A stretch of DNA of 16,397 nucleotides from a virus. Its lineage: Duplodnaviria > Heunggongvirae > Uroviricota > Caudoviricetes. Positions 5,384 through 15,858 of this stretch are shown here, piece after piece (position 1 is the first letter of the stretch; each line of letters begins with the position of its first letter). A model generated the notes under the pieces. It was not told where the DNA came from. It made no database searches and saw only the letters and a program-made list of their open reading frames with translations. The DNA lies in IMG/VR virus record IMGVR_UViG_2778261693_000004, positions 1 to 16,397 of that record. The stretch is one strand, 5' to 3'. A program made the translations under genes and the position numbers.

Positions 5384-6529
5384 TTATTCAGCCGCCACCG
5401 GTTTTAACAAGCCAGCATCGAGCAGTTTACGCGTCAACCACTGTTGTCCTTTCCCCGTTAATTGGGGCGTCAGCCGTATCTGGTAGCCATCTTCATCATC
5501 CAGCACCACTTCTTTCACTGTGAAATATCCGGCGTTTATGTACTGCTGGAACGGCACATTTTTACGCCCGCCGGACGCTATCAGAATGCCGTTCTCCCGT
5601 AACCAGGCAAACAGCGCGTTTTGCTTCAGCCCAACAACCTTTGCAAAATTACCAATCAGGATCCCCTTAGCCACTGATACACGGTCGGCAAAATCGACCT
5701 TGGGGGCTGCGGCCACCAGTTGTTGATTTAGCTGGTGGGCCTTCTGTTCCAGTAGCTGCTTTTGTTCAGCCAGCTCGGCAGCCAGGCGCAAGGCTTCAGG
5801 TAGTGTTTGGGGGATTGCGACCGGTTGCTGTTCTTTTTGCCGGAAGTAGCTGTCTTCCAGTTTTTCAAAGAATGCCCATGCTTCATCTGTGTTTACGATC
5901 TTAGACATGCGTGCCGCTCCGCGTTCGGCCCAAAGAATTACCTGGCTTGTATATTTGCTAACCAGGTGACTAGTAGTCACCAGCCTTTTAAATTCCTTTA
6001 ATTTTTAACCAGTTAAGAGATAGTAATGCTTACCTTCTTCAAAGCGATCGGAGTTGCGAGACAAATTTTTACGAATATTAGCTTCATCGGTTCCATACCC
6101 CTTAGCAAGAGTTTCGGTCGTTACTACACGCACTCCCAGCCATTCCAGAACGGGAATTTCATCAGACTGATTCTGAACAACCACCAGCTCTGATTCCTGA
6201 ACTGAAGTTGCATGAATTTTTTCTGATTTAACGTTAGTTGCTTTCATTCTGTGTGCCTCCTTGCGTGCTTCGGCTGCGACGGTTGCGTAATTCAGATGAC
6301 CCTGTTCGAGCAGGTATTCACGGATATCGGTCACAGCGATAGCCTTTAAGCGCAGATAAACATCGCGCTTATCGACATCCAGATGCGGGTATTCCTTTTC
6401 AAGAATTGCTGCGAGTTCTTTCGCTGATAGAAGAGATTTAGTGCGGATCATGTAATCCGCAATCTCGTACGATGTTATTCGTGAGTGATTTATTTCCATG
6501 AAGTGGCGTCCCTGCCAGTTAAGTAACAT
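5384..6529 (-). pseudogene. Antirepressor-like gene (ORF6N/Rha-type N-terminal domain plus KilA-C/ANT C-terminal domain) split by an in-frame TAA at 6005-6007
   Basis: ORFs 6005-6529 and 5384-5980 are in the same frame. The upstream ORF stops mid-domain (…SDRFEEGKHYYLLTG*) and the domain continues after the stop (KLKEFKRLVTTSHLV…TDEAWAFFEKLEDSYF). The downstream part carries a KilA-C-like motif (GNFAKVVGLKQNALFAWLRENGIL…PFQQYINAGYF) and begins only at a GTG. Confidence 0.6.
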
Positions 6530-8256: not shown

Positions 8257-8477
8257 TATCGGTTAACCAGTTCCTTGTTGGTGGAGTCCAGGGTGTCAAA
8301 CAGGGATGCAAATTCAGCATCCAGCGCCGCTTTTTTGTAGGCTTCGAAAGTAGCCTTGCTGACAATTACTGCTGGCTCACGGCCTCTGCGGGTGATTTCA
8401 ACCTCTTCCCCGGCTTCAACATTGTTGAGCACTTCAGAAAGGTTGCCGCGCGCGGTACGGAAGTTAATGGATTGCAT
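8256..8477 (-). CDS. phd: Phd antitoxin
   Basis: 73 aa from the ATG at 8475-8477 ([49 protein letters not shown]…), recognised as P1 Phd. GAGGTG Shine-Dalgarno. Confidence 0.93.
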
Positions 8478-8484
8478 AAACACC

Positions 8485-8510
8485 TCGTGTACTCGTTATG
8501 TGTACACAAT
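8485..8510. promoter_or_regulatory. Phd/Doc autoregulatory operator with palindromic GTGTACAC sites
   Basis: Perfect palindrome GTGTACAC at 8501-8508 and a one-mismatch copy at 8487-8494, between a -10-like TATAAT on the minus strand and the phd Shine-Dalgarno. Confidence 0.55.
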
Positions 8511-8549
8511 TATAAACTTCACAGGCATAAAGCACCAGCACTTTGCAGC

Positions 8550-8939
8550 TTAAATCACCGGACAATCATCAAATTCCCCACTTCGGGCATCATTAATGAC
8601 ATGAGTGATCACACCAAACACAGCATTACTCCCCGTGCATCCATCGTCATCCACTGGTAACGCCTCTTTCTTCCCGGTGCTTAAATCCTCCAGGTGCTGG
8701 CGCGGATACTTTCGGTATCTCTTTATGCGATATTCACCCTCCATAGCGCACACAAGCAGCGAACCATCAACTGGAGTAAGCGAAGAATCAACCACCAGCA
8801 AAGCACCCTGCAATATTCCCTCACGGTGATGGCTATCAGCTGCCCGCATGAAGTAGGTTGCTGATGGATGTCTAATTATCTGCTGATCAAGAGAAATTCG
8901 GCTTTCAACATAATCCGCCGCAGGAGAAGGGAAACCCAT
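8550..8939 (-). CDS. humD: HumD, UmuD'-like SOS mutagenesis protein
   Basis: 129 aa starting [30 protein letters not shown]…, which aligns with the processed form of E. coli UmuD ([30 protein letters not shown]…); C-terminal [12 protein letters not shown] matches FGVVIHVVKAMR. Confidence 0.9.
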   Translation of the reverse strand: [129 protein letters not shown]

Positions 8940-8958
8940 AGCGTTTTACCTCAAAAAT

Positions 8959-8974
8959 ACTGTTTATCTATACA
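8959..8974. promoter_or_regulatory. LexA box (CTGT-N8-ACAG) in the humD promoter
   Basis: taCTGTttatctatACAGca, about 20 bp upstream of the humD Shine-Dalgarno and ATG, overlapping a plausible TTGCAC/TAATGT promoter on the minus strand. Confidence 0.65.
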
Positions 8975-9113
8975 GCATACATTAAAGAAGCACCTTTGGT
9001 GCAAACGCGTTATGTACATCAACCACCGCTGATGATTTTTGTGCGCTTTGCTACTATTCATCACCGCGGGATCAGCGTAACCTCGTTGCCAATCAGTTAA
9101 TAAGGAATTAGCT

Positions 9114-9698
9114 ATGCCTAATCGCATTCCTCTCGATCCTGTATTGCCCAAAAATTTTGACTGCACTCCTAACGAGAAACGCTCTAAAGCTCAGCTGGAC
9201 GCCTAGTGGGACCATCCATATGGGGTTACACAACCTGACGGGAAAATTGTAGTTTATTGTCTGAATGGTGGGGCGTGGGACCGTCCATCCATGCTTTGTT
9301 TGGCAGATAACTATGATGAAGCCTGTGAACTTGCCGAAAGACAGCAGGCAAGCTGGGTAAAAACACGGTCTGAACCGACATTCATGTTTTCAAAAGAACC
9401 GCCATTTATACTGGCGAGGATGCCGCAGCGACCGGATCATCAACAAGAAATTGTTGCTGAATTTTCCTCAAGGGATGAGATGAATCTCTTCTCATTAAAG
9501 CAGGAAGAAAGGGATCGCGTCGAAGTGTCTCCAACTCTCGACCACAACCGGATGAACCTGGCCCAGCTCGCCTGGTACAGCAAAGAATTAGAGATGTCTA
9601 TTGCCCGGCTTGAAAACGAAAAAGCCGCTATCCAAGTCCAGCACGAAGTAGTTCTGAACCGGATTAGAGAAATGCAAAACGATAACAGGGGATTTTGA
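9114..9698 (+). CDS. Hypothetical protein; reading frame from a well-positioned ATG is interrupted by an in-frame TAG at 9204-9206 (uninterrupted ORF starts at 9291)
   Basis: AAGGAA Shine-Dalgarno 8 nt before the ATG at 9114. Frame is open for 30 codons, then TAG, then continuously to 9698. The ATGs at 9291 and 9314 have no Shine-Dalgarno. The stop abuts the next gene's ATG. Confidence 0.45.
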
Positions 9699-10055
9699 AT
9701 GGCTAAAATCGAGTACCATCGCGATCGCGGTAATTACCTGGAAATATACGATCATGAATCTCTTAACGATATCAACGATGCGTTATATGAATACTGTGAA
9801 AAAACGAGCATCACAGATGCACCTGATGCATTTGTCGAGCTGCCGGTATATCTCCGCGACATCTATGCAATACGAACACCGCCCGTATCGGTGATTCACA
9901 TTGGCTATGTCCGCCTGTCCATCGAAGAAGATGAAGATCGTTATATCGTGCGCCACTATACATTGGACAGAAAAGAACTTCCTAATGAATGGAACATGAG
10001 TAATTTCTACAACGGTGAATATGGCTTAAAATCCGCTAATAATTTACGGTCATAA
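9699..10055 (+). CDS. Hypothetical 118-aa protein, translationally coupled to the upstream gene
   Basis: ATG at 9699 directly follows TGA at 9696-9698. AGGGGA Shine-Dalgarno. Sequence not recognised. Confidence 0.55.
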   Translation: MAKIEYHRDRGNYLEIYDHESLNDINDALYEYCEKTSITDAPDAFVELPVYLRDIYAIRTPPVSVIHIGYVRLSIEEDEDRYIVRHYTLDRKELPNEWNMSNFYNGEYGLKSANNLRS

Positions 10056-10900
10056 TCTATACAGGCATGTATAACAACAACGAGCCTATTAGCTGTCAAC
10101 AACGTTATTTCCTCAAATAAGAAAAAGCAGAAAACAAATTGTTTAAGGTCACAAATTGTGGCCTTGATGGAGGAGGGAGGCTTATTGGCTATGGCTAAAA
10201 ATCAAATTAGACACTTCATGTTGCTGTAGCTCATCAAGATCCGAGGCCACAAAACCTTTTCCGAAAAACTTCACAAGTAACTCACTAGCCGCATCATTGT
10301 CACCTATTACACGAAAGTCATACGGCAACGTCGCAAGTTGACGATGTAATCCTGCTGAGAAAGTCGAATCTAACAGCGCCCAGAATTCCCACCGCAGGAT
10401 AATACTCGCCTCTTAATACTGTATATATGTTGTTACGATATGTTTTTCTGTCTCTAAAAAAAGATGTTTGAAGGGGATAAAAATATACAATTCCAACAAA
10501 CGTTATTTTTAACAATTTTTTTCTTTGCGTTGACTTTCCCGGACACCTTGTCTGACCTAAGGTGCGCGAAAGCCACTTTTTCCTTCCTGAGTTATCCACA
10601 AAGTTATGCACTTGCAAGAGGGCCATTTTCTACATATTGTGGTGGCTAACAGATGAAATGAATGTAGATTAATTGAAGATAAGGAGAAAATTTGAGATGC
10701 AATCATGACGTTAATAGATAGGGTCTGCATTACAGACCCCACCCGCATCAAGGAATTAGCCGTTCCCTGATGTTTTTCCGAAAACATGTGCCGTAAGCTC
10801 ACGTTAACGACTTTCATTCACCGAATCCAACTATATAGGGGTTGGGTTTCTACGTCAACGTGAGCAAGTGCACCTTTACATTTGACAAGGAACCACCTGA

Positions 10901-11038
10901 ATGAACGCTTTTTTTCAGTTCCTGAGTGCATTTTTAGATGCGCCTATTATTAGCCAGATTCTGGCTATTATCCTCATCATCGTTTTGATTTTGCTTTTAA
11001 GGTCAGTAAAAAATGGAATTATGCACTGGCTTACTTAA
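10901..11038 (+). CDS. Small hydrophobic peptide (45 aa), single predicted transmembrane helix
   Basis: MNAFFQFLSAFLDAPIISQILAIILIIVLILLLRSVKNGIMHWLT with AAGGAA 8 nt upstream. Sits in an otherwise ORF-poor AT-rich region. Confidence 0.3.
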   Translation: MNAFFQFLSAFLDAPIISQILAIILIIVLILLLRSVKNGIMHWLT

Positions 11039-11113
11039 TGTTTCAGTGAAACATTAAAATCTCCTTGATGTGGAAACAATCATTTTCTGTATGTGCTGGT
11101 GGGCACCTGTAGT

Positions 11114-11476
11114 TCAGCTTTCGTTGGCATTTAACTTCGTCTTTGCTTTCTCCACCAGCAACTTCCAGATGCCTATTTCATTAGCAGCCGCCTTGATGGC
11201 GGCATAAAAAGCATCTTGCTGATCGTAACGCTGGATCTGTTTTTTCAGTTTTGCCTCCACCAATTTAATTTCATTACGTGCTTTCTGAAGCCGCATCACC
11301 GCCCGGTTACGTCTGTTCTTGTATAGCGTGTTAATCTCTGACAATTGCTTTAATTTACCAGCCTGACTGCGGATTATCGCCTCCCTGGCTTCTGCCGTGC
11401 GTCTCATCTGATCTCTTAAGAGTTCACCGTTTTCGATAATTCTTTCAAGGTGTTTGATGTGATCTGCAACTCTCAT
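11114..11476 (-). CDS. Hypothetical 120-aa basic, probably coiled-coil protein; last gene of a five- or six-gene minus-strand operon
   Basis: Start overlaps the stop of the upstream 293-aa gene. Lys/Arg/Glu-rich heptad-like sequence. Confidence 0.6.
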   Translation of the reverse strand: MRVADHIKHLERIIENGELLRDQMRRTAEAREAIIRSQAGKLKQLSEINTLYKNRRNRAVMRLQKARNEIKLVEAKLKKQIQRYDQQDAFYAAIKAAANEIGIWKLLVEKAKTKLNANES

Positions 11477-12354
11477 ACTTCACCCTCGCTTGTATCACCA
11501 GCGTCCACCAACGACAATAAAGCCCTGGCCATCTTATGAACCAACAGTGCATCAATAATGCCAAGCGTATGCCCCGGCTTAATGTTTAATGCTGCCTCAA
11601 GATGACACCTTTCCAGACCGCTTTTCTCGGCTTGTTTATGATGATATGGCGTAATAACGTCGCCCAAAACACGGCTAATTCTTTCTCGTAATTGCTGGGT
11701 GCCAGCACACTTGATCGCTGTATCGTGGAGACGGTTAACCAGTTCGCGATAAACATGCGGCTTAATGCGGATACGTTCACCGGTGACGCCCTTTCCTGGC
11801 GTAGGCACCGAACTATCCGGAATATCCGGATAGTTGCCAGCCAGTCTACGCAAAACAGCCTTAATTGCATCAATACGGTCATCATCAACTTTTTCTACAA
11901 TATTGGAATTTAAATACTTCGAAGCCTTGCTATGCCAATCGCTGGTTTTAGGGTCTTGTCCATCCATCAAACGCCAAGCTTCAGCGATTAACTCATAGCC
12001 AGTAACAGTGGCTTCCTGCGCATCACCAATCAGTTGTGTGATCTCTCTTTCAAGCATGCTTAGAGCGTTAGGCATTGGTTTTTCTTCCGGTACTACTGGA
12101 ACGGGGGGAGCGGCGTAGACCTCAATAATTCCATTATCAATAGGCCATTCTCCATCCTTGAGGTAGTCACTTGTGCCGTCAACTTGCTGTTCTGCAATGT
12201 GGAATGCACCTATTGGTTTTGCTTCCAGTGATGCCAGAGCAATTCGTGCCAGTTCTTCCGCTTCTTCTGCTGGCAGTACAACGTTGCTACCAGGTCCGTA
12301 TGTTTCGCGCCACTGCTTGATTGTCAGTAGTCGCTCTTTGGTAATAGTGGTCAT
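11473..12354 (-). CDS. Hypothetical 293-aa protein
   Basis: Long ORF overlapping both neighbours by 4 nt (operon coupling). Sequence not recognised. Confidence 0.65.
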   Translation of the reverse strand: MTTITKERLLTIKQWRETYGPGSNVVLPAEEAEELARIALASLEAKPIGAFHIAEQQVDGTSDYLKDGEWPIDNGIIEVYAAPPVPVVPEEKPMPNALSMLEREITQLIGDAQEATVTGYELIAEAWRLMDGQDPKTSDWHSKASKYLNSNIVEKVDDDRIDAIKAVLRRLAGNYPDIPDSSVPTPGKGVTGERIRIKPHVYRELVNRLHDTAIKCAGTQQLRERISRVLGDVITPYHHKQAEKSGLERCHLEAALNIKPGHTLGIIDALLVHKMARALLSLVDAGDTSEGEV

Positions 12355-12866
12355 GCCGCGTTTCCTTCTTTCTTATTAACAATTACACCGTCATATATTT
12401 CATTAAGGTGCCCTCTCAACTCCATGCGCCTTAATGCAGATAACATGTAATCGCATTCAACCTGCTTATTTCCAGTAAATGGCTTATCGTCAGGATTACC
12501 CCAACAGCAATTACCCTTGGGCCACCCATGTACTTTCCGTACTCTTCCGTTAACAACGTGAAGTAATCCCCAGCCAGGTGGTAAATCCTCAATTGAAATA
12601 ATTCCCGGCTCACTAATAAAGAATCGCCAGTCGCCCATTCCAAGAGACGGATTTTTACGAAAACGCTTTTTTCTATCTGCCAACAAGTCAGCACGAGAAC
12701 ACTTCGCCTCTATCAGGCATGATGCTGAATTTCTGAATCCCATAGCATCTGGCTGTTCTCCGGTACTGGTTACAGCTATAAAGCGGTCATGAAAACAAAC
12801 CTTGAACCCGTTGCGCTTAAGGAACTTGTACGCAATCTGACAGAGTTCGCGGTGTGTTAACGCCAT
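12351..12866 (-). CDS. Putative PD-(D/E)xK-fold nuclease (MmcB-like)
   Basis: 171 aa with a D…E-x-K signature (…GEQPDAMGFRNSASCLIEAKCSRADLLAD…). ATG overlaps the stop of the upstream PP-loop ORF. Confidence 0.55.
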   Translation of the reverse strand: MALTHRELCQIAYKFLKRNGFKVCFHDRFIAVTSTGEQPDAMGFRNSASCLIEAKCSRADLLADRKKRFRKNPSLGMGDWRFFISEPGIISIEDLPPGWGLLHVVNGRVRKVHGWPKGNCCWGNPDDKPFTGNKQVECDYMLSALRRMELRGHLNEIYDGVIVNKKEGNAA

Positions 12867-12867
12867 A

Positions 12868-13234
12868 TCACTCTCCTTTGATGCGAATGCCAGCGTCAGA
12901 CATCATATGCAGATACTCAACTGCATCCTGAACCCATTGACCGCCAATCCCGTAATAGCGATGCGTAATGATGTCGATAGTTACTAACGGGTCTTGTTCG
13001 ATTAACTTCCGCAGAAACTCTTCCAGGTCACCAGTGCAGTGCTTGATGACAGGAGTTTTCCCAGGATGGCGAACAACAAGAAACTGATTTCCGACTTCAC
13101 GGACTTCGTTGCTTTCCAGTTCTGCTATCCATAAAAATGAAATGGACGCTAACGCCAGCTTTTCGCTGTGCTTCCATCAGATGAACGAGATAAGCCGATG
13201 TTCGTCCACCTGAAAAGCTGACGACTTGATGCAT
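12868..13234 (-). pseudogene. PP-loop (SGGxxS) ATP-pyrophosphatase-like gene, apparently frameshifted
   Basis: ATG at 13232-13234 gives MHQVVSFSGGRTSAYLVHLMEAQRKAGVSVHFIFMDSRTGKQRSP*. A second frame overlapping it by about 80 nt continues to 12868 (…NQFLVVRHPGKTPVIKHCTGDLEEFLRKLIEQDPLVTIDII…). The switch lies near a T5 run / GGAAAG around 13100-13135. Confidence 0.45.
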
Positions 13235-13243
13235 ACTCACGGT

Positions 13244-13822
13244 TTATTCCTGAATGCGCTTAAACTCGATTACCCATACCAACGGGTTAGATAGCCAGTT
13301 ATCCTGCCCGTAAATACTGCGCCAGATATCACCAAAACCAACGCGATAAACAGCTTCAGATGGCGTAATCTTGTACGTCGCCGGAGTTGCGCCTTCTGCT
13401 TTAGCATCTTCCTCGCTCATGTCATGCAGCCGTTCCACACGCACGTCGGTAATTTCCAAAAGAATGCGCGATGCCCAGCGCGGCATGTGAATTGATGGCG
13501 TCCACTTTTCTGATACTGGTTTATTACAAACCTCGACCGGAACCCGGTGCGTTTGTTCTGTCCAGGAGTTACGCACGCTTGCGCGATAAACCAGCGTTGC
13601 GACGTCCGTCGCTTTGCCATGTACCCGGTAGGTTTCGCGAACCCAAATACGATCGCCCGGTTGACCATATGGACAATGCTTGGCAAGCAACTCTGCGGCC
13701 ACTGCCCGTCCATAGAATTTTTCTTCAACAATCCTGCGAGTCTGTGTTTTATTCCCGCCAAGAATTGCCCGGACCATCTCATCGTTAAAAATCATGCCGC
13801 GCTCTTTCACTTCGCCTTTCAT
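13244..13822 (-). CDS. ASCH-domain-like protein
   Basis: 192 aa. N-terminal MIFNDEMVRAILGGNKTQTRR fits the ASCH G-x-K-x-x-T-x-R signature. GGGGG Shine-Dalgarno. Confidence 0.6.
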   Translation of the reverse strand: MKGEVKERGMIFNDEMVRAILGGNKTQTRRIVEEKFYGRAVAAELLAKHCPYGQPGDRIWVRETYRVHGKATDVATLVYRASVRNSWTEQTHRVPVEVCNKPVSEKWTPSIHMPRWASRILLEITDVRVERLHDMSEEDAKAEGATPATYKITPSEAVYRVGFGDIWRSIYGQDNWLSNPLVWVIEFKRIQE

Positions 13823-13831
13823 GCATCCCCC

Positions 13832-13918
13832 TTACCCATGTGCGACGATGCCGCCAAAAGTGATAGAGAACAGCCAGAAATAGATCGCGGCCATAATGAT
13901 TTTGAATGCCGTGTTCAT
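13832..13918 (-). CDS. Small hydrophobic peptide (28 aa), first ORF of the operon
   Basis: MNTAFKIIMAAIYFWLFSITFGGIVAHG with AGGAG 9 nt upstream. Its stop lies 9 nt before the ASCH gene's ATG. Confidence 0.3.
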   Translation of the reverse strand: MNTAFKIIMAAIYFWLFSITFGGIVAHG

Positions 13919-13945
13919 ATTTTCAGCTCCTGTGATTGATTGGAT

Positions 13946-13977
13946 ACATGCCGCGCCTTGCGGCATGTTTTTATTTT
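13946..13977 (+). terminator. Plus-strand rho-independent terminator in the leader of a minus-strand operon
   Basis: ACATGCCGC-gcctt-GCGGCATGT (9-bp GC-rich stem) followed by TTTTTATTTT. No plus-strand gene upstream. Confidence 0.45.
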
Positions 13978-13991
13978 CACTTTCTCTGTTT

Positions 13992-14008
13992 TAAAAATCA
14001 TTATTTAT
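13992..14008 (-). promoter_or_regulatory. C1 operator in front of the ASCH/PP-loop/nuclease operon
   Basis: ttATTTATTAGAGCAAT, 15/17 to the reverse-complement consensus. Confidence 0.7.
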
Positions 14009-14016
14009 TAGAGCAA

Positions 14017-14523
14017 TTATTGTTGATGGAGAAGCGCGTTTTCATACTCCCTGACCATTAACGTAAGCACGCCGTGCCTCCTGAAAACACGCGCCACTTC
14101 AATCTTATCTTCCAGCGCGAACGCAATTTTGCTTAGACCAATTTTCTTAAGGAGATCAATCTTTGCTGGACCGTCATTTCTGTCATCGGTGGCGGGACGC
14201 ATAGATAGCAAAGGCTCTGCCCCATTTGTTACGTGCTTACGCAACCAGGCTCGTGTTTTATCCCTGGCTATCTCACAGCGCCCGGTTACAAACCAGAGCG
14301 TGTAAATGCTGGACAACTGGCGCACCATATCAATAACTGGAGTGATGGAAGCATCAGTGTCACAGGCAAGGTTAAACTCGTTCCAGTGCTCTGTTAATGC
14401 ACCGTTGCCAGGCGGTGGAAGTAAATGCAGCCTGTCTTCCGTTGCCTCCGATATCGTTCCATCAATATCTACTATGACAATGTACGGACGTTCCTGGTGT
14501 GCGTGTTTATTGAAAATACTCAA
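14017..14523 (-). CDS. HAD-superfamily phosphatase (polynucleotide 3'-phosphatase-like DxDGT motif)
   Basis: 168 aa with motif I VIVDIDGTIS. TTG start with GAGGAGG Shine-Dalgarno 4 nt upstream. Confidence 0.7.
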   Translation of the reverse strand: MSIFNKHAHQERPYIVIVDIDGTISEATEDRLHLLPPPGNGALTEHWNEFNLACDTDASITPVIDMVRQLSSIYTLWFVTGRCEIARDKTRAWLRKHVTNGAEPLLSMRPATDDRNDGPAKIDLLKKIGLSKIAFALEDKIEVARVFRRHGVLTLMVREYENALLHQQ

Positions 14524-14542
14524 ATGCCCTCCTCATTGGACG

Positions 14543-14576
14543 AAAAAAATGCTGGTGGGCGCACTCCACCAGCATT
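14543..14576 (-). terminator. Minus-strand rho-independent terminator after the 420-aa gene
   Basis: AATGCTGGTGG-gcgcact-CCACCAGCATT (11-bp stem) with A7 on the plus strand 5' of it, i.e. a U-run after the hairpin on minus-strand RNA. Confidence 0.55.
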
Positions 14577-14595
14577 AAAAGTGACACTGTAACTA

Positions 14596-15858
14596 TCAGC
14601 GAACGTAAATAGTGCCGCCGTTCACTTTTTCCCATGCATCGCTAAGTGCATAGCAAACATCAAGAAGTCTTCTTGCCGCTGTTTCCTCTAAACCCAATTC
14701 GACAACCAACTGCTCATGACGGCGGGTAACCACATCAAACAGGGTATGCAGCCCTTTAGCTGCCAGATCATCAATAAATTCCGGTTCGAACGGCAGCTCT
14801 GCATCTGCCAACATAACCTCTTGCGCCCACTCAACTCGACGGACCAGTTCCGGGCGGCGGCTTTCCATCTCTTTACAGATCAATTCATGGAAGAACTCTA
14901 CCCAACCTTCCGGCTGGAACTCGCGGAAAATTGCCAACGGCTGGAAGTTTGGCATCAACCATTCGTTGATTCGGATATCAATGGCATAGCCCATGTCGCA
15001 GCAGAACTGATAAGCAAAGTCCAGCTTAGAAACGATATAAGGACGCTCGTTATTGAACTCTTTAGGCGATGAGATCCCATAAGCCAGGAGGCGCGGGAAG
15101 AATGAGATTTGCCCTAACGTCGGATGGAGTTTGCTTGCAGGAAAACGGCGCTCAGTAATGCCATACATTTCCTTCTTGAGCGTCGCAAATTTAGCATTTT
15201 CATTAACCAGCGCGGTAACCTCTGCTTTTTTATTAGCAAATGCCACGCGCGCTTCGCTTGCATCTTTAATAGTTTTTTTGAGCTGTTGGTTAAGATCGGC
15301 GACCTGCTTACGCAGTTCCTGTCGCTCGCTTTTAGCTTTGTTATAGCGTTTCTCAAGGTTAAAAGGATCAAGTTTCATGATCTCTTTATATTGAGATTTT
15401 AGCGTTGAAATCTGTGAGTTCCGCAGTTCAACCATCGCGGTCATTTCATTGAGTTTTGTTTCCAGCTCAATGCTTATACGTTCGGCATTATCAGCACGCT
15501 GGTTGGCGTCATGCGTCGCATCGTCGATCGCGTCCTGTTGCTGGCGTTTCAAATGTTCAATTTGCAGCTGAAGCTCTTCAATTTCTTTACCCTTCAGACC
15601 GAGATCCAACTGCATATTTTCAGCTGCATCTACCAGGGAGTTATGGCTATCAGCTTCTGCGTTATAAACATCAATAAGCTGTGCGTGAAGCATCTCCGCT
15701 GACTGAACCGCATTATCAAAAAAACGCGCTGTGAGGTCATCACAACTAACGCGGCGTTGCGCGGCCCGGATGTTCTGGATAATGGCCGGGATACCGGCAT
15801 TCAGGACGTCAGGGATAGATACATTTTCGATTGATTGGTTTTGTGCTGAAGTGCTCAT
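14596..15858 (-). CDS. Hypothetical 420-aa protein, N-terminal coiled-coil plus a C-terminal globular domain
   Basis: Long ORF; residues about 80-220 are heptad-rich (…EIEELQLQIEHLKRQQQDAIDD…). Sequence not recognised. Confidence 0.65.
   Translation of the reverse strand: MSTSAQNQSIENVSIPDVLNAGIPAIIQNIRAAQRRVSCDDLTARFFDNAVQSAEMLHAQLIDVYNAEADSHNSLVDAAENMQLDLGLKGKEIEELQLQIEHLKRQQQDAIDDATHDANQRADNAERISIELETKLNEMTAMVELRNSQISTLKSQYKEIMKLDPFNLEKRYNKAKSERQELRKQVADLNQQLKKTIKDASEARVAFANKKAEVTALVNENAKFATLKKEMYGITERRFPASKLHPTLGQISFFPRLLAYGISSPKEFNNERPYIVSKLDFAYQFCCDMGYAIDIRINEWLMPNFQPLAIFREFQPEGWVEFFHELICKEMESRRPELVRRVEWAQEVMLADAELPFEPEFIDDLAAKGLHTLFDVVTRRHEQLVVELGLEETAARRLLDVCYALSDAWEKVNGGTIYVR

Follow-up and report, generated by a model that had tools for sequence, protein, structure and literature searches.

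The locus at positions 12868–13234 of the window (the whole stretch of viral DNA analyzed here, 16,397 nucleotides) is, with a probability that we put at about 0.93, a deletion scar of a P1-like phage-plasmid, in which the remnants of two unrelated genes, one PAPS-reductase-like and the other ead/Ea22-like, are joined out of frame to form an ordinary pseudogene junction. The junction is already known, in that the public annotation of an identical sequence gives two partial pseudogenes, and it brings no new biology.

Reading frames at the locus

All features of the locus are carried by the minus strand. An open reading frame (ORF) starting with ATG at 13234 runs for 45 codons to a stop at 13097–13099 and specifies the product MHQVVSFSGGRTSAYLVHLMEAQRKAGVSVHFIFMDSRTGKQRSP*; an alternative GTG start is present at 13240, two codons 5′ of the ATG. 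Residues 8–13 of this product (13196–13213) constitute SGGRTS, a PP-loop-type motif. The +1 frame relative to the 45-codon ORF stays open from 13176 to 12871, a length of 102 codons, before a stop at 12868–12870, from which the ATG of the next gene (12866) is separated by one base. The two frames overlap by about 25 codons (13100–13176). The initial annotation had described an SGGxxS-containing frame that terminates after 45 codons and an overlapping frame that continues to the next ATG, both of which were confirmed, and it had placed the switch near a T5 homopolymer and GGAAAG. Indeed, the T5 run (13133–13137) and GGAAAG (13112–13117) flank the change of sequence identity at 13126–13128. It had also remarked that a fused product of about 120 aa would be short for a PAPS-reductase-like enzyme, which holds equally well; the notional fusion of both frames has about 122 aa against 290 aa for the intact protein, a shortfall that is explained by the deletion.

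The locus lies between two intact genes on the same strand. The upstream neighbor in the ORF list (13244–13822), which marks the left boundary of the deletion context, encodes a 192-aa protein that is annotated by PGAP as an ASCH-domain protein and belongs to PHROG 874. The downstream neighbor (12351–12866) encodes a 171-aa protein of unknown function (PHROG 9263/631) and has its counterpart in pSE18-SA00377-0-P2, a P1-like plasmid of Salmonella Agona, where it comes after the intact Ea22-like gene. The genes for the ASCH-domain protein (192 aa), a HAD phosphatase of the PNKP type (168 aa; PF25109, E 3.5e-11), and a 420-aa coiled-coil protein together occupy 13244–15858 of the window on the minus strand; in many P1-like plasmids, this block is found upstream of the PAPS-reductase-like gene.

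The upstream frame is a remnant of a PAPS-reductase-like gene

The 5′ remnant (13126–13234, minus strand) corresponds to nucleotides 1–109 of an 873-nt ORF, that is, codons 1–36, with the native start codon and the upstream region kept. Its residues 1–36 are identical at 35 of 36 positions to intact 290-aa proteins encoded by the plasmids pMTY10828_p0111, pEcoUTI1e, and pSE18-SA00377-0-P2. In a megablast search of window positions 12300–13900 against complete E. coli genomes, the DNA from 13126 upward was 99.5% identical to plasmids with the intact gene; in pMTY10828_p0111 and pEcoUTI1e, this gene is annotated as 'phosphoadenosine phosphosulfate reductase domain-containing protein' and stands directly after the ASCH gene. 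PHROG 424 ('PAPS reductase') matched residues 1–36 of the window ORF with an E value of 3.6e-8 and the intact 290-aa protein over its full length with an E value of 4e-92. Moreover, the intact protein of pMTY10828_p0111 passed the Pfam profile PF01507 (PAPS_reduct) with 37.8 bits against a cut-off of 22.5; the 45-aa product of the window gave no Pfam match.

The window ORF shares with the PAPS reductase/PP-loop family (PF01507) the SGGxxS/T motif near the N-terminus, and its descent from the family is seen in both the sequence and the orthologous position after the ASCH gene. It differs from the family in keeping only 12% of the protein and in having no complete alpha/beta nucleotide-binding domain (the profile has 175 positions). 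The window ORF is a remnant of a PAPS-reductase family member and is unable to form the nucleotide-binding fold of about 175 residues. Regarding the lost gene, the intact PAPS-reductase-like protein showed weak similarity to SspD, DndC, and BrxP in PADLOC, and its scores against NCBIfam were far under the cut-offs; a role in defense or anti-defense was considered and set aside, these signals being too weak for assigning a function.

The downstream frame derives from an ead/Ea22-like gene

The 3′ remnant (12868–13128, minus strand) comprises the last 86 codons (12871–13128) and the stop codon of an ead/Ea22-like gene. The DNA at 12862–13128 of the window is 99–100% identical to the 3′ ends of many ead/Ea22-like genes of prophages and plasmids; for the corresponding end of lambda ea22, the identity to the remnant is 96.5%. 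At the protein level, it aligns to residues 105–191 of the 191-aa Ea22-like protein of pSE18-SA00377-0-P2, and the comparison with PDB 8DSX ('Protein ea22', the C-terminal domain (CTD) of lambda Ea22) gave an E value of 5.8e-50 (residues 5–85 on 8–88), the two sequences being nearly identical. The remnant is essentially the whole lambda-type Ea22 CTD. The lambda Ea22 or ead/Ea22-like family is represented by Pfam PF13935 and by the CTD structure 8DSX (PMC10834534, PMC7093339); the CTD is a separately folding, dimeric domain, and full-length Ea22 is a tetramer (PMC10834534).

The 85-aa remnant gave no Pfam match, the N-terminal Ead_Ea22 domain (PF13935) being absent; in an intact relative, this domain spans residues 2–109 (104.4 bits), and the remnant starts at about residue 105. 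The window sequence thus differs from members of the Ea22 family in three respects: the N-terminal, coiled-coil part that bears PF13935 is missing, no start codon is left, and the frame is +1 relative to that of the upstream ORF. A start-codon scan of the Ea22 frame found no ATG, GTG, or TTG before codon 91 of the 102, that is, 12 codons ahead of the stop.

The junction and its proposed history

The breakpoints obtained by independent BLAST searches agree with each other, the PAPS side beginning at 13126 and the Ea22 side ending at 13125–13128. A base-by-base comparison with pSE18-SA00377-0-P2 revealed that the junction at 13126–13128 coincides with a 3-bp microhomology, TAT on the plus strand and ATA on the coding strand, which is common to both parental sites; with the Ea22 allele of pEcoUTI1e, the shared identity is 2 bp (AT). 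The coding-strand sequence is ...ATG GAT A/CC GGC... in the PAPS gene (the slash marking the break) and ...CGC ATA GCA GAA... in the Ea22 gene, so that joining the two at ATA shifts the Ea22 codons by one base and results in nine nonsense codons, SRTGKQRSP, before a stop (TGA). These out-of-frame codons form the tail of the truncated ORF (13097–13125, minus strand, together with base 13126 as the first base of codon 37). The DNA of this tail is derived from Ea22 and, when read in its native frame, encodes (I)AELESNEVR, matching Ea22-like proteins.

The arrangement before the deletion is seen in pSE18-SA00377-0-P2, which matches the window at 12220–13128 with 99.45% identity and at 13126–15618 with 97.35% identity. 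The two flanks have the same order and orientation as in the window and lie 1,510 bp further apart, and the 171-aa downstream proteins are 100% identical. The intervening 1,510-bp stretch consists of codons 37–290 of the PAPS-reductase gene, genes for 67-aa and 79-aa proteins, and codons 1–104 of the Ea22-like gene, giving the same-strand order of phosphatase, ASCH/'phage-related', 290-aa PAPS-reductase-like, 67-aa, 79-aa, 191-aa Ea22-like, 171-aa, and DUF551. In pEcoUTI1e, the arrangement is the same with one more small gene, and 2,136 bp separate the flanks. The flanks are thus collinear with a relative that has no deletion, and the two breakpoints share a short identity, as expected for a microhomology-mediated deletion.

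Presumably, an ancestral minus-strand operon contained the genes for the ASCH-domain protein, the 290-aa PAPS-reductase-like protein, two or three small proteins, the ead/Ea22-like protein, and the 171-aa protein. Illegitimate recombination at the 3-bp microhomology ATA would have removed about 1.5 kb from this operon (or 2.1 kb in the case of a three-gene parent) and would have fused codon 36 of the PAPS-reductase-like gene to an Ea22-like gene broken at about codon 105, the rest of which was thereby placed in the +1 frame. A single intramolecular, microhomology-mediated deletion of 1.5–2.1 kb is the simplest history of the locus. No single exact parent record was found in the databases; the PAPS side is nearest to plasmids of the pMTY10828_p0111 type (99.5%) and the Ea22 side to pSE18-SA00377-0-P2 (99.45%). 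Since the two flanks have different closest relatives, the parent itself appears to have been a mosaic, and the deleted length may have been 1.5 or 2.1 kb.

Some P1-like plasmids have no PAPS-reductase gene, and in these the Ea22-like gene is intact and comes right after the ASCH gene. Their arrangement shows a natural modular variant and a region that is a recombination hotspot.

Occurrence of the junction in other records

The distribution of the junction was analyzed with a 156-nt query centered on it, an end-to-end match being counted as spanning. By this measure, the junction was spanned by one of 287 matching records among complete E. coli genomes, by one of 92 among the plasmids of PLSDB, and by none of 25 among phages. 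An exact 28-mer across the junction had no match in the GTDB species representatives or in the IMG/VR contigs, and one match in metagenome contigs (ERZ791801 NODE-447). Altogether, two other assemblies carry the junction at 100% identity.

One of them is plasmid pMTY9803_untypable1 of E. coli TUM9803 (NZ_CP135674.1), which is 100% identical to the window over 12700–13900. RefSeq/PGAP has annotated both parts of the locus on this plasmid as partial pseudogenes, the 5′ part as 'PAPS reductase domain-containing protein, missing C-terminus' and the 3′ part as 'ead/Ea22-like family protein, missing N-terminus'. The plasmid carries ISVsa5 (IS4-like) inside the 171-aa gene, flanked by a 9-bp target duplication of window positions 12700–12708 (CACTTCGCC), and the window represents the empty site. 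Because this insertion distinguishes the plasmid from the window, the two are independent records. The other assembly, ERZ791801 NODE-447, keeps the junction and is devoid of window positions 12411–13062 (652 bp) and 6098–6346 (249 bp); the 652-bp deletion leaves little of either the Ea22 remnant or the 171-aa gene. In addition, pMRE162 plasmids, which are 99.97% identical to the window flanks, have no counterpart of 12860–14451 (1,592 bp, with a microhomology of about 2 bp), a deletion that extends across the PAPS/Ea22 remnant and the ASCH gene into the phosphatase gene, most of which is lost. Relatives that are at least 99.9% identical to the window, namely pMRE162, the metagenome contig, and pMTY9803, have thus damaged the area further. 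The junction is a genuine and rare marker of one lineage, to which the area is dispensable. Positions 1–254 of the window are unmatched by the otherwise near-identical pMRE162 plasmids, the matches of which start at 255.

Alternative readings of the two frames

The initial annotation took the locus for a frameshift inside the PP-loop gene, possibly a pseudogene. The term pseudogene was correct in outcome, but the frameshift within one gene was not, as the downstream frame comes from another gene, the ead/Ea22-like one, of which it represents the 3′ end. A simple frameshift, brought about by mutation or by a sequencing indel at the T5 run (13133–13137), would have the attraction that the frame change adjoins a homopolymer, a typical spot for indel errors; nevertheless, we regard it as scarcely credible. 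The T5 run is unchanged in the intact genes, where ATTTTTATGGAT encodes I-F-M-D; the DNA downstream of 13126 is dissimilar to the PAPS-reductase gene and is 99–100% identical to ea22-like genes; the two frames align to different parents, PAPS-reductase residues 1–36 versus Ea22-like residues 105–191; the intact protein is far longer than the fusion would be; and the junction is repeated in two other assemblies. A sequencing indel, which had been proposed as one cause, is ruled out by the recurrence of the same junction in independent assemblies and by the different gene downstream, and no single-base correction restores either parental protein. Alignment to P1-like homologues had been expected to reveal one intact frame. 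It revealed instead two separate single-frame genes, encoding proteins of 290 aa and 186–191 aa and standing 1.5–2.1 kb apart; two small genes with the boundaries of the window frames, the other pattern that had been envisaged, were not what the comparison found.

Programmed +1 ribosomal frameshifting, which would join a PP-loop leader to the Ea22 CTD in a chimera of about 120 aa, had been named in the initial annotation as a lesser possibility, and its probability is now minimal. The geometry would be suitable, since the frames overlap by about 25 codons, a zero-frame stop (CCG-UGA-A) lies inside the overlap, and the shift needed is +1. The Ea22 CTD remnant is also complete, and the CTD folds and dimerizes alone (PMC10834534). 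Against this reading, the arrangement stems from a recent deletion and is found in a few assemblies that are at least 99.9% identical, so that nothing can be said to be conserved by selection, and relatives have deleted part or all of it. By inspection, the frame overlap contains no slippery motif of the prfB type (CUU-UGA) or the X-XXY-YYZ type and no P-site codon competent for re-pairing (CCG moves to CGU upon a +1 shift). The minus-strand RNA of 13020–13150 folded no better than shuffled sequences (z = −0.57), giving no sign of a stimulatory structure, and an Rfam scan had no match at the locus. Compared with programmed +1 frameshifting of the prfB type, the window is alike in having two overlapping frames, the second in +1, and a zero-frame stop codon; it differs in having no slippery or re-pairing site, no correctly spaced SD-like stimulator, and no conservation, and its two halves come from unrelated genes.

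Illegitimate recombination between two elements, for example between a P1-like plasmid and a lambdoid prophage with an ea22 module, is unlikely, albeit clearly less so than either kind of frameshift. Chromosomal lambdoid prophages likewise carry the two modules (of the 297 places that matched the junction query, 213 are chromosomal), the best-matching relatives differ between the two flanks, and frequent gene exchange has been reported for P1-like phage-plasmids (PMC10879196). However, pSE18-SA00377-0-P2 already has both genes together with the same 171-aa gene in the same order and orientation, and with such an arrangement a single intramolecular deletion is sufficient and more parsimonious than recombination between two elements.

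Predicted expression of the remnants

From the sequence, we infer that both remnants left by the deletion are non-functional. The retained ATG may give rise to at most a 45-aa peptide, consisting of a beta-strand/P-loop/helix fragment followed by the nine nonsense residues. Translation of the Ea22 CTD remnant is improbable, as it has no start codon. With its own ribosome-binding site in place, the 171-aa gene probably continues to be expressed as part of the operon transcript; its Shine-Dalgarno sequence, AAAGGAG, sits within the 3′ end of the Ea22 remnant. In a scan of 12300–14000, no promoter or terminator that the deletion might have created was seen on the coding strand close to the junction. 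A large assembly collection, queried for the exact products of the 45-aa and 47-aa ORFs, returned no gene call, ORFs this short being rarely called. It is extremely improbable that the deletion created an expressed product, either a stable 45-aa peptide or a chimera of the PP-loop leader and the Ea22 CTD made by low-level +1 slippage near CCG-UGA. If such a chimera did exist, it would supply the dimeric, self-folding Ea22 CTD without the coiled coil needed for tetramers, and its effect might be that of a dominant-negative or altered pro-lysogenic factor.

For annotation purposes, the two fragments are best labeled as partial pseudogenes, PAPS-reductase-like with the C-terminus missing and ead/Ea22-like with the N-terminus missing, and neither as a frameshifted PP-loop gene, nor as a recoding site, nor as two small genes.

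Phage-plasmid context

The window belongs to a P1-like phage-plasmid and has hallmark genes of P1, which at the corresponding positions of the near-identical pMRE162 are annotated as Ref, a Cre-type integrase, the C1 repressor, Phd/Doc, and an S24 (HumD-type) peptidase. P1-like phage-plasmids decay into plain plasmids via gene loss (PMC10879196), and, compared with the defective members described there, the scar in the window is one more small deletion and shows no difference in kind. Another loss is located at about 6332–6341 of the window, where, relative to the full-size pEC21Z048-103K (8378–12131), about 3.75 kb is absent between ant and lpa. The genes icd, ash, pacB, and pacA (terminase) are lost with this segment, together with a portion of lpa and the 5′ region of the gene for the KilAC antirepressor, so that the element is probably packaging-defective. 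Near-identical relatives have sizes of 61 and 77 kb, as compared with about 90–100 kb for typical members. The scar provides a handy lineage marker and, taken together with the loss of pacA/pacB, the further deletions, and the IS insertion, documents a stepwise decay of a phage-plasmid. The top phage match for part of the region was P7.
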